Virus record (IMG/VR): IMGVR_UViG_2537561685_000014
Location: 1-17,832 of that record
Length of the DNA: 17,832 nt
Reading direction: 5' to 3' (one strand)
Origin: a virus
Taxonomy: Duplodnaviria; Heunggongvirae; Uroviricota; Caudoviricetes
Shown: positions 5,550 through 5,703 of the stretch, piece after piece
Numbering within the stretch: the stretch's first letter is position 1
Layout of the letters: every line of letters starts with the position of its first letter
Notes under the pieces: model-generated
The model's database searches: none
What the model was told of the DNA's origin: nothing
What the model saw: the letters and a program-made list of their open reading frames with translations, nothing else
Translations under genes and position numbers: made by a program

Positions 5550-5625
5550 GCCGACTTAGCTCAGCAGGCAGAGCAACTGACTTGTAATCAGTAGGTCACC
5601 AGTTCGATTCCGGTAGTCGGCACCA
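5550..5625 (+). tRNA. tRNA-Thr (anticodon UGU)
   Basis: 76 nt; 7-bp acceptor stem GCCGACT/AGTCGGC; D arm GCTC/GAGC; anticodon stem ACTGA/TCAGT with loop CTTGTAA; T-loop TTCGATT; ends ACCA. One A-C mismatch in the T-stem. Resembles host thrU. Confidence 0.75.
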
Positions 5626-5628
5626 TAT

Positions 5629-5703
5629 GCGGGTATCGTATAATGGCTATTCCCTCAGCCTTCCAAGCTGATGATGCGGGTTCGATTCCCGCTACCCGCT
5701 CCA
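5629..5703 (+). tRNA. tRNA-Gly (anticodon UCC)
   Basis: 75 nt; perfect acceptor stem GCGGGTA/TACCCGC; anticodon stem TCAGC/GCTGA with loop CTTCCAA; T-arm GCGGG-TTCGATT-CCCGC; ends TCCA. Very close to E. coli glyT as I recall it. Confidence 0.8.

Follow-up and report, generated by a model that had tools for sequence, protein, structure and literature searches.

Phage 933W (NC_000924) carries a promoter, pT, followed by the tRNA genes ileZ, argN and argO upstream of stx2, and is one of the closest described counterparts of the locus presented here. The idea that late-region tRNAs aid the rare codons of phage and toxin genes reportedly originated in work on the 933W genome. A second, positional and structural likeness is to phage T5 (NC_005859), in which stable or tRNA-like RNAs (RNA1, RNA2 and RNAI-IV) are transcribed together with the tRNA clusters. 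On the bacterial side, the counterpart is the tufB operon of E. coli K-12, in which four tRNA genes are arranged in the order thrU-tyrU-glyT-thrT. Defence evasion, rather than codon supply, has recently been argued to be a primary reason for phage tRNAs (PMC12445682).

The pair of genes under study, encoding tRNA-Thr(UGU) and tRNA-Gly(UCC), is a cassette that is already known, and as a tRNA pair it is nothing new. The same cassette is found in Stx2f phage phi467 (LN997803), vB_EcoS-683R6, vB_EcoS-689R5, vB_EcoM-606R7, PhiR47_1, JLK-2012, the LT-IIb prophage SerU-LTIIb and RefSeq E. coli prophages, and Grande et al. 2016 (PMC5189129) refer to its loci. In a literature search of a limited collection, no paper was found that treats ileZ and argN together with Stx. 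Of 5,426 complete E. coli genomes, 868 contain the fused Thr-TAT-Gly cassette, as do at least 119 contigs of IMG/VR. Given its annotation in many phages and its presence in roughly a sixth of complete E. coli genomes, the cassette can be considered ordinary. The explanation that we favor on balance is that it is a thrU/glyT-derived, tyrU-deleted cassette of lambda-like phages that supplies two minor tRNAs.

Prophage context

The window (the whole 17,832-nt stretch of DNA that was analyzed) belongs to a decaying lambda-like E. coli prophage of the DLP12/933W type from an ETEC lineage. Its nearest relatives differ from it at only three positions in the first 9 kb, and ETEC relatives that are 99.8% identical over 401 nt have the two genes annotated as tRNA-Thr and tRNA-Gly. 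Degradation of the prophage is evident from IS insertions and from frameshifts within the genes for portal and protease, and so present selection on the window copy is doubtful.

Table 1. Features of the tRNA cassette region and their positions in the window.
Feature	Position	Strand	Evidence
Q (PF06530)	1891-2244		
Homologue of 933W pR' 3' edge, qut and first terminator	3812-3873	+	84% identity over 62 nt
Intrinsic terminator-like site in PR'/tR' homologue	3843-3864	+	Terminator scan
Sigma-70 promoter-like site, TTGAAA-16 nt-TAATAT	5461-5488	+	Consensus scan, not significant alone
Leader hairpin, GGUUCC-GA-AGGGG ... CUCUU-GA-GGAACC	5497-5546	+	MFE -18.5 kcal/mol
tRNA-Thr(UGU), thrU-derived	5550-5625	+	ARAGORN (tgt), Rfam RF00005, K-12 alignment
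Spacer TAT, 3 nt between tRNA-Thr and tRNA-Gly	5626-5628	+	
tRNA-Gly(UCC), glyT-derived	5629-5703	+	ARAGORN (tcc), Rfam RF00005, K-12 alignment
Predicted four-way-junction RNA and U-tract	5730-5832	+	MFE -40.9 kcal/mol, z -3.07
Holin	6451		

The cassette lies on the late strand, after Q, PR'/tR' and a type II MTase gene and before the lysis genes (Table 1). The 62-nt homologue matches positions 1694-1754 of 933W L142, a segment that takes in the end of pR' (annotated at 1667-1694) together with qut and the first terminator; this places the tRNA genes downstream of the late promoter and tR'. The insert that precedes the cassette is probably a restriction-modification system; a 427-aa reverse ORF has no PADLOC or Pfam match.

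The 933W tRNA genes occupy the same locus, and the layout is shared: Q, pR', qut, tR', a tRNA promoter, tightly spaced tRNAs, a terminator and cargo or lysis genes. 933W also has a homologue of the 3' end of the window MTase. In contrast, the 933W tRNAs are Ile-CAU and two Arg species, whereas those of the window are Thr and Gly. pT abuts ileZ, whereas a 50-nt hairpin separates the window promoter from tRNA-Thr, and, unlike in 933W, no toxin genes follow the window tRNAs. The annotated phage pairs have the same gene order and the same Q-to-lysis locus as the window, with the spacer TAT in all but PhiR47_1 (TGT). These copies follow Q or stx, whereas the window cassette follows the MTase gene. 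The copies in phi467, 689R5 and 606R7 have the host thrU/glyT sequence, while the window allele diverges (Thr C16/C20, Gly U6-A67 and a private A24C).

A preliminary description of this DNA had stated that Stx phages carry Ile/Arg tRNAs at the locus, in agreement with the ileZ-argN-argO annotation of 933W, but had taken the Thr/Gly pair to be a different cargo. This second statement does not hold, as in phi467 the pair is located just downstream of stxAB. Neither is the pair an alternative to Ile/Arg, given that mixed Ile/Met(CAU)-Arg(UCU)-Thr-Gly arrays occur in at least 18 of the surveyed contigs. The cassette is found either alone or appended to Ile(CAU)-Lys/Arg arrays, and the companion tRNAs in such arrays include Lys(UUU) and Asn(GUU).

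Many phages and islands use tRNA genes for integration, and on such general grounds the two tRNA sequences might be duplicated att fragments at a prophage boundary, although nothing in the window supports this. Both genes are full length with CCA rather than partial copies, and they are situated well inside the prophage, between Q and holin, with about 20 kb on either side. They are preceded by a promoter of their own, and packaged phage genomes hold the same cassette. The internal position and the completeness of the genes refute an att origin, to which we assign a negligible probability.

tRNA genes and their relationship to thrU and glyT

ARAGORN predicts exactly two tRNA genes in the 17.8-kb window. 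Both are far above the RF00005 gathering score of 29 (tRNA-Thr: 69.8 bits, E-value 1e-13; tRNA-Gly: 59.6 bits, E-value 6e-11), and K-12 thrU and glyT score 73.8 and 64.9 bits in the same comparison. Because the scores lie within 4-5 bits of those of the host genes, neither gene is pseudogene-like, and a pseudogene call was rejected. The adjacent tRNA-Thr(UGU) and tRNA-Gly(UCC) genes of the preliminary description, 3 nt apart, are thus borne out, as is the check that it had proposed with tRNA predictors: ARAGORN and Rfam give the same anticodons (tgt and tcc) and high scores, with no pseudogene signal.

The identity elements of ThrRS are G1-C72, C2-G71, G35 and U36, and those of GlyRS are U73, G1-C72, C2-G71, G3-C70, C35 and C36. 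As read from the sequence, all of the former are present in the phage tRNA-Thr, as they are in thrU, and all of the latter in the phage tRNA-Gly. CCA is encoded in both. Both genes are structurally sound and have the anticodons and synthetase identity elements of the host.

In sequence, the tRNA bodies match the corresponding genes of the tufB operon at 97-98% identity and, like them, have the A52.C62 mismatch, the identity elements and an encoded CCA. Relative to this operon, the cassette lacks tyrU and about 200 nt of spacer, has an unrelated promoter and flanks and is not followed by thrT or tufB. The spacer TAT corresponds to the T after thrU plus the AT before glyT in the host operon, as would result from a deletion of tyrU together with its spacers. 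It is present in 122 of 128 complete cassettes, plus two truncated ones.

A resemblance to host thrU and glyT had been proposed from the sequence and is confirmed, with two and three differences from K-12, respectively. The sole changes in tRNA-Thr are U16C and U20C, both in the D-loop; these are absent from the preliminary description. The A-C mismatch that it had reported in the Thr T-stem is present (A52.C62), but it is not a phage defect. Because thrU carries the identical mismatch, it is inherited, and a phage lesion was rejected as an explanation.

In tRNA-Gly, C6T and G67A form a compensatory acceptor-stem change (C6-G67 to U6-A67), and A24C (window position 5652) converts the U11-A24 D-stem pair to U11.C24, such that the glyT-type D-stem (G10-C25, U11-A24, A12-U23) is not intact. 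Both kinds of change had been recognized previously and stand, but the D-stem change is a window singleton rather than a family trait. Position 5652 is A in the closest relatives of the window, and A24C occurs in 0 of 128 related cassettes from IMG/VR and GTDB genomes, all 128 of which have A. The window tRNA-Gly may be slightly impaired by this private mismatch. U11.C24 is a quality feature of the tRNA and does not exclude membership in the glyT family. MFE folding was uninformative on A24C and U16C, as it gives no full cloverleaf for the host genes either; even for host glyT the D-stem is absent.

Variation across the cassette family is concentrated at few sites. Gly pair 6:67 is C-G in 68 cassettes, U-A in 51 and the wobble intermediate U.G in four, a pattern which suggests selection on function across the family. 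Thr positions 16 and 20 are TT in 83 of 124 cassettes, CC in 32, CT in seven and TC in two. Other variation in the surveyed cassettes is nearly all rare, and many cassettes are 100% identical to the host tRNA genes.

Predicted transcription unit

The promoter-like site is the analogue of pT in 933W. Its pattern TTGnnn-16/17-TAnnAT is kept in each of 25 distinct leaders that precede stand-alone Thr-Gly cassettes, with 8-10 matches out of 12. The distance from the end of the -10 element to the leader hairpin is 6-8 nt in these 25 leaders, and the spacer sequences are unrelated. The hairpin ends 3 nt 5' of tRNA-Thr, and the primary transcript is predicted to begin with it. RNAalifold of 23 distinct leaders likewise gives a stem of 6+3 bp interrupted by a GA/GA internal loop. 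Pairing extends to 90% of cells in this alignment, with modest covariation (pair 18:68: CG in 9, UA in 7, UG in 5).

Downstream of tRNA-Gly is an element with an invariant closing stem (CACUG/CAGUG), three hairpins and a U-tract. Elements of this four-way-junction type are found 24-33 nt 3' of tRNA-Gly in 64 of 124 loci, and the type present in the window occurs in 391 of the 5,426 complete E. coli genomes. MAFFT with RNAalifold missed the interior hairpins when applied to mixed element types, and single-sequence folds and a covariance model were used instead. Single-sequence folds recover the four-way architecture in 17 of 18 divergent sequences, and a covariance model built from one sequence type retrieves the other types. 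Compensatory changes are present at 13 of 25 pairs, with 94.8% of cells paired; 0 of 500 shuffles equaled this. A search of the flanks against Rfam in E-value mode gave only sub-threshold miRNA-like and STnc100 matches. We predict that the cassette ends in this element, which would be a structured terminator or a stable RNA. Its position beside phage tRNA genes and its structure recall the stable RNAs of T5, but the window element ends in a U-tract and may be a mere terminator.

The notion that the cassette promoter is itself the late promoter PR', with the tRNAs at the position of lambda 6S RNA, was rejected, as the 933W-like PR'/qut/tR' is 1.7 kb upstream. The location of stx between the antiterminator and the cassette in phi467 and the annotation of a separate pT in 933W also count against it. 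The cassette has a promoter of its own and a downstream terminator, both predicted. Because the promoter and the 5' hairpin are conserved and the terminator covaries, the cassette looks like an autonomous unit. Promoter, hairpin and four-way-junction terminator would together make up an RNA unit that lacks annotation and occurs in hundreds of E. coli genomes.

This conservation bears on the idea that the cassette is a neutral passenger, that is, a set of host-captured tRNA genes spread by late-region recombination without benefit and starting to decay in this prophage. The IS insertions and the frameshifted portal and protease genes fit such decay, as does the private Gly substitution that breaks a D-stem pair, and the complete host identity of many cassettes may reflect recent capture or gene conversion instead of selection. 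However, promoter, hairpin, tRNAs and terminator are kept across divergent flanks in more than 120 contigs from several genera, and the Gly acceptor-stem change is compensatory, with wobble intermediates. With no more than three differences separating the first 9 kb from the nearest relative, one SNP in a tRNA gene does not indicate general decay. We consider a neutral passenger improbable.

Codon usage and proposed model

The proposed model for tRNA supply is as follows. The cassette would act as an autonomous, moron-like transcription unit. In the lysogen it would be transcribed from its own promoter, and during lytic growth Q-modified polymerase from PR' would read through into it. RNase P and 3' exonucleases would free the two CCA-encoding tRNAs. 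The extra copies would increase the supply of two minor isoacceptors, each with a single host gene, that read ACA/ACG (Thr) and GGA/GGG (Gly).

The codons concerned are more common in the prophage than in a baseline of 40 host genes, which we take to be somewhat below the genome-wide values: ACA 11.1 versus 5.2 per 1000 (Fisher p 1.6e-4 within Thr codons), GGA 10.5 versus 7.2 per 1000 (p 1.4e-3), and ACG and GGG each 1.9-fold enriched. Overall, the codons read by the pair are used 1.5-2 times as often as in host core genes in the prophage and 2-10 times as often in its AT-rich cargo. The genes iss (ACA 52 and GGA 52 per 1000), the putative endonuclease (ACA 23.5 per 1000) and the MTase (GGA 17.3 per 1000) are examples. 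For the toxin genes beside the same cassette in relatives, the values are ACA 17 and GGA 27 in stx2f and ACA 16 and GGA 21 in LT-IIb.

The late structural genes, which make up the bulk of translation demand, are barely enriched (ACA 8.9 and GGA 9.4 per 1000), and this counts against codon supply. The most enriched codons of the prophage are AGG, AGA and CGG (4-6-fold), and it encodes no tRNA for any of them. The preliminary description had suggested that the pair may reflect the codon usage of late or cargo genes and had proposed a comparison of ACA and GGA frequencies with those of the host. That comparison came out as expected, with both codons more common in the prophage than in the host sample. 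The cargo genes, in which the increase is greatest, agree with the suggestion; the late genes and the unserved AGG, AGA and CGG codons do not. The codon argument is of moderate strength.

tRNA-targeting nucleases

Host tRNA-Thr(UGU) was recently shown to be a prime target of the PARIS nuclease AriB (PMC12409363), and P2 Old, the classic lambda killer, to work mainly by cleavage of tRNA-ThrU (PMC12445682). The cassette might replace or out-compete host tRNA-Thr(UGU), and perhaps tRNA-Gly(UCC), cut by such P2/P4-borne Toprim nucleases, with U16C hindering AriB. This anti-defence reading is weaker than codon supply, and we regard it as possible but doubtful.

Several observations are in keeping with it. 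The window tRNA-Thr has the targeted UGU anticodon and carries U16C, a secondary AriB determinant known from tRNA-Lys. In the AriB model, the second monomer is placed on U16-U17; cleavage of E. coli tRNA-Lys by AriB was significantly impaired by U16C, and T5 has C16 (PMC12409363). U16C and U20C are the only departures of the window tRNA-Thr from thrU, and in the 124 cassettes tRNA-Thr has no polymorphic hot-spots other than positions 16 and 20. The array companions Lys(UUU) and Asn(GUU) are other AriB targets. Resistance to Old follows a two-factor rule, an altered CNG motif combined with a shortened anticodon stem (PMC12445682), and at least four cassettes plus JLK-2012 have G42/U43 changes, through which the 3' CNG motif is altered and the anticodon stem becomes shorter.

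However, the anticodon arm of the window tRNA-Thr is that of thrU. Positions 27-43 are identical (ACUGACUUGUAAUCAGU), and the AriB site (U36AAUC|A41) and the Old CUG/CAG motif are intact. No cleavage-site substitution is present, either for AriB (39-41) or for Old (CNG at 28-30/40-42 plus a shortened stem). Additional host tRNA-ThrU protects barely, if at all, from P2 Old, and the determinants of resistance lie in the anticodon arm (PMC12445682). The effect of U16C on AriB is known from tRNA-Lys only, and 83 of the 124 cassettes have the host bases at Thr positions 16 and 20. These positions are generally among the least constrained in tRNAs, and so their polymorphism could be neutral.

The phage tRNAs known to act in this way differ accordingly. 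T5 tRNA-Thr (against AriB) and tRNA-Thr6/Thr21 (against P2 Old) have the same UGU anticodon as the window tRNA-Thr and would thus replace the same host tRNA, and T5 tRNA-Thr also shares C16. These tRNAs are highly diverged from thrU and altered at or near the anticodon-arm cleavage sites, whereas the window arm is host-identical.

A more specific proposal is that a thrU-derived cassette is in conflict with P2/P4 Toprim nucleases, with U16C/U20C directed against AriB, G42/U43 against Old and tRNA-Gly(UCC), with its matching CAG/CUG plus A37 motif, serving as a second, as yet unreported nuclease substrate. We consider this combination unlikely. If true, natural lambda-like phages would already carry a counter-measure to classic P2-lambda interference, and if the Thr alleles alter nuclease sensitivity, this classic phage-phage interference would be linked to a widespread prophage feature. 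Irrespective of this, the cassettes provide a natural data set of hundreds of near-identical, host-derived tRNA-ThrU copies in lambda-like phages. Although tRNA-Gly(UCC) is the known target of no nuclease, the CAG/CUG sequences at 28-30/40-42 and A37 are also present in glyT and in the phage tRNA-Gly.

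tRNA genes

Two tRNA genes, tRNA-Thr(UGU) and tRNA-Gly(UCC), were predicted by ARAGORN in the whole window, separated by the trinucleotide TAT. ARAGORN and the Rfam tRNA model agree on this pair and on the anticodons given in a preliminary description of the sequence; a low score, a pseudogene call or a different anticodon was sought with both tools and none was found. The Rfam scores are far above the gathering score of 29 and near those of the E. coli K-12 counterparts thrU (73.8 bits) and glyT (64.9 bits), and so the genes are real and, by score, not pseudogenes. Both encode CCA, and the published identity elements for ThrRS and GlyRS are kept. 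In thermodynamic folding of the window and host tRNAs, even unmodified thrU and glyT do not form a complete cloverleaf.

Features of the window surrounding the tRNA cassette
Feature	Position	Strand	Evidence or remark
Q	1891-2244		PF06530
427-aa ORF (candidate endonuclease)	2451-3734	-	no family match in Pfam/PADLOC
64-aa winged-helix ORF (candidate controller)	3991-4185	+	
Type II N6/N4 DNA methyltransferase	4335-5381	+	PDLC03265, E-value 2.5e-151
Promoter-like site (TTGAAA, 16-nt spacer, TAATAT)	5461-5488	+	consensus scan; alone not significant
Leader hairpin (GGUUCC-GA-AGGGG...CUCUU-GA-GGAACC)	5497-5546	+	ends 3 nt short of tRNA-Thr
tRNA-Thr(tgt)	5550-5625	+	ARAGORN; Rfam 69.8 bits, E-value 1e-13
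tRNA-Gly(tcc)	5629-5703	+	ARAGORN; Rfam 59.6 bits, E-value 6e-11
Four-way junction (closing stem CACUG/CAGUG), then U-tract	5730-5832	+	z = -3.07
iss/bor serum-survival lipoprotein gene	8347-8640	-	

When aligned to the K-12 thrU-tyrU-glyT-thrT region, the window tRNA-Thr differs from thrU only by U16C and U20C, two D-loop changes that the preliminary description missed. The T-stem A-C mismatch that it did report is present but not phage-specific: thrU also has A52.C62, which on this alignment is a host feature. The tRNA-Gly differs from glyT as described, by a compensatory acceptor-stem pair (C6T and G67A) and one D-stem change (A24C), the latter converting the U11-A24 pair to a mismatch (NC line of the Rfam alignment). 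The nearest relatives of the window are prophages of human ETEC isolates (99.4% identity); the window itself is absent from the complete-genome collection. Only three positions differ from one of these ETEC prophages (L010) over the first 9 kb, one being 5652 (Gly A24C). In IMG/VR and GTDB genomes, every complete cassette (128/128) has A at position 24, and none of the 868 cassette-bearing E. coli genomes perfectly matches the window's junction. By these comparisons A24C is a singleton that either arose by mutation recently or reflects an error in sequencing.

Distribution and variation of the cassette

The Thr/Gly pair is a lambda-like-phage cassette that is already known and annotated, in phages phi467, vB_EcoS-683R6, 689R5, 606R7, PhiR47_1 and JLK-2012 and in the LT-IIb prophage. 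A 76-nt query across the Thr/TAT/Gly junction is matched over its full length in 868 of 5,426 complete E. coli genomes. The exact fused-junction pattern occurs in at least 119 IMG/VR contigs and in genomes of E. coli, Shigella flexneri, Escherichia ruysiae, Citrobacter braakii and Enterobacter hormaechei. Of 128 complete cassettes, 122 have TAT as the spacer. These three bases correspond to the T on the 3' side of thrU joined to the AT on the 5' side of glyT in the K-12 operon, the composition expected from deletion of tyrU; in several phages the copies match thrU and glyT at 100% identity.

The cassette stands alone at 54 loci and elsewhere forms the 3' half of an array: Met/Ile(CAU)-Lys(UUU)-Thr-Gly (36 loci), Met/Ile(CAU)-Arg(UCU)-Thr-Gly (17 loci) and rarer forms. 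Stx phages do carry Ile/Arg tRNAs at this locus, as previously noted (ileZ-argN-argO is annotated in 933W), but the suggestion that Thr/Gly is a different cargo does not hold. In the Stx2f phage phi467, whose published description mentions these tRNA loci (PMC5189129), the pair lies directly downstream of stxAB, and the mixed arrays indicate that Thr/Gly is no alternative to the Ile/Arg cargo, since both are combined in nature.

Among 124 cassettes, Gly pair 6:67 is C-G in 68, U-A in 51 and U.G in four. Such compensatory change, with U.G as the wobble intermediate, is evidence of selection on the tRNAs. Thr positions 16/20 are the only polymorphic hot-spots (TT 83, CC 32, CT 7, TC 2); variation at positions 42 and 43 is seen in at least four loci, and other variants are mostly singletons. 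The combination G42U/C plus U43C, found in JLK-2012 (L009 3984-4059) and at least four IMG/VR cassettes, destroys the 3' CNG motif and shortens the anticodon stem to 3 bp; the JLK-2012 copy scores 49 bits with Rfam and is not called by ARAGORN.

The anticodon itself also varies. In the LT-IIb prophage (SerU-LTIIb, L003 1122-1197) the same Thr body carries G35C, giving UCU, with two further changes and is annotated as tRNA-Arg. In two IMG/VR contigs with Met-Lys-Lys-Gly arrays (including L081) it carries G35U, giving UUU (nominally Lys). Both substitutions replace G35, which counts among the identity elements for ThrRS. In four-tRNA arrays (e.g. L006 3927-4003, L017, L015 and L111), the annotated anticodon of the second tRNA differs among phages (Lys UUU, Arg UCU, Phe AAA, Leu UAA or an odd loop).

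Gene context and codon usage

Based on RefSeq annotation of relatives, Pfam and PADLOC, the gene order upstream of the tRNA pair is DUF968, RusA, Q, the reverse 427-aa ORF, the winged-helix ORF and the methyltransferase. After the pair come a non-coding stretch of approximately 750 nt, two holins, a GH108 lysozyme, iss/bor and then lambda-like terminase, head and tail genes. Positions 3812-3873 are 84% identical to the 933W segment spanning the 3' edge of its annotated pR', then qut and the first terminator, which places PR' and tR' upstream of the methyltransferase and tRNAs. The 427-aa ORF, winged-helix ORF and methyltransferase together probably make up an insertion of type II restriction-modification cargo around PR'. 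A relic of the 3' end of this methyltransferase lies upstream of pT, the putative tRNA promoter, in 933W.

Relative to the closest intact relative, positions 12590-17100 contain a 9-nt insertion and 13 single-base deletions outside homopolymer runs, the deletions frameshifting the portal and S49 protease genes. The window ends within a tail gene at an inverted IS66-family (ISCro1-like) terminus (17583-17832); relatives carry several IS elements. From its sequence, the prophage appears degraded, being either in decay or of low sequence quality.

tRNA-Thr(UGU) reads ACA/ACG and tRNA-Gly(UCC) reads GGA/GGG, and K-12 has one gene for each. The preliminary description had suggested that the pair may reflect codon usage of late or cargo genes, and ACA and GGA are indeed more frequent in the prophage than in the host baseline.

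Codon frequencies per 1000 codons
Gene set	ACA	ACG	GGA	GGG
40 K-12 core genes (host baseline)	5.2	12.7	7.2	9.6
Prophage, all genes	11.1	23.9	10.5	17.9
Late structural genes	8.9		9.4	
iss	52		52	
427-aa ORF	23.5			
Methyltransferase			17.3	
stx2f (relative)	17		27	
LT-IIb (relative)	16		21	

Cargo genes show the strongest enrichment, and late structural genes are enriched weakly. The prophage maximum for both codons is in iss/bor (a sample of only 96 codons), whose codon use fits a cargo-gene demand for both tRNAs. AGG, AGA and CGG are enriched more (4-6 fold), and the prophage lacks tRNAs that would read these codons. The codon-supply explanation thus has only moderate support, better for cargo than for late genes.

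Possible role in anti-defence

Alternatively, the cassette tRNA-Thr might counter the Toprim nucleases AriB (of PARIS) and P2 Old, for which two 2025 papers provide evidence on tRNA-ThrU. AriB has host tRNA-Thr(UGU) as a prime target; its second monomer is modelled on U16-U17, and cleavage is impaired by U16C in tRNA-Lys, T5 having C16 (PMC12409363). The window tRNA-Thr carries U16C along with U20C. The other targets of AriB, tRNAs Lys(UUU) and Asn(GUU), occur as companions in the arrays. The Lys form of the second array tRNA has U36AAGUU in place of the AriB site U36AAUCA.

P2 Old is the effector behind classic P2-lambda interference, and its lethality comes mainly from cleavage of tRNA-ThrU, at paired CNG motifs within the anticodon stem; a resistant phage tRNA-Thr has an altered CNG motif and a shortened stem, and extra host tRNA-ThrU does not rescue (PMC12445682). 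The G42/U43 changes in a few related alleles, including JLK-2012, fit this two-factor rule. However, the anticodon arm of the window tRNA-Thr is that of thrU, with CUG/CAG, A37 and U36AAUC|A41 all intact, and it should therefore be cut by Old and be at best a poorer AriB substrate. By sequence, glyT and the phage tRNA-Gly also have CAG/CUG and A37; tRNA-Gly(UCC) is not a known nuclease substrate. Anti-defence is attractive for the cassette family but weak for the window copy, and overall is considered an unlikely function. The previously missed D-loop changes, with their possible AriB link, and the private D-stem substitution are worth keeping in view.

Transcription signals and structured RNAs

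Also worth keeping are a conserved predicted promoter, hairpin and four-way junction that frame the cassette. The pattern TTGnnn-16/17-TAnnAT is kept in 25/25 distinct leaders of stand-alone cassettes, where the -10 element ends 6-8 nt short of the conserved hairpin, although the spacer sequences are unrelated. This hairpin, which begins at the predicted transcription start, was predicted independently by RNAalifold with modest covariation and contains a tandem GA/GA internal loop (GGUUCYGA...YGARGAACC). It could serve in transcript protection, as a processing signal or as a protein-binding site.

The four-way junction has an invariant closing stem and three covarying hairpins and lies 24-33 nt 3' of tRNA-Gly in 64/124 loci, in three sequence types. 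Single-sequence folds gave the same architecture in 17/18 divergent sequences, and a covariance model of one type detects the others (E-values 1e-10 to 5e-3). In a model-guided alignment, which is itself fitted to the model, 94.8% of cells are paired and 13/25 pairs show compensatory changes; 0/500 shuffles reached these levels, and slid controls were 35-49% paired. Rfam contains no family for this RNA. The window type is present in 391 of 5,426 E. coli genomes, without RefSeq annotation. The element could act as a terminator or be a stable RNA. Three related loci have additional copies of it on the upstream side of the tRNA promoter (L013 2521-2599, L069 2072-2168 and L092 7236-7314).

The annotated order in 933W (pR', qut, terminators, "pT; putative tRNA promoter", ileZ-argN-argO, terminator, stx2) follows the same logic as the window. 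On this basis the cassette is predicted to be an autonomous moron-like transcription unit, which would also be read through from PR' under Q.

Directly 3' of the U-tract is a very stable long hairpin (5823-5918, plus strand; -46.9 kcal/mol, z -7.6), with only sub-threshold, miRNA-like matches in Rfam; its GGAATGGTGCATTAT arm is conserved in many related loci. Positions 5892-6091 (plus strand) weakly match the STnc100 sRNA family (19.9 bits, below the gathering score of 47), and this segment closes with a strong intrinsic terminator (6062-6081) that precedes the holin. JLK-2012 has a bona fide STnc100 (L009 4964-5136, 107 bits) at the equivalent site.
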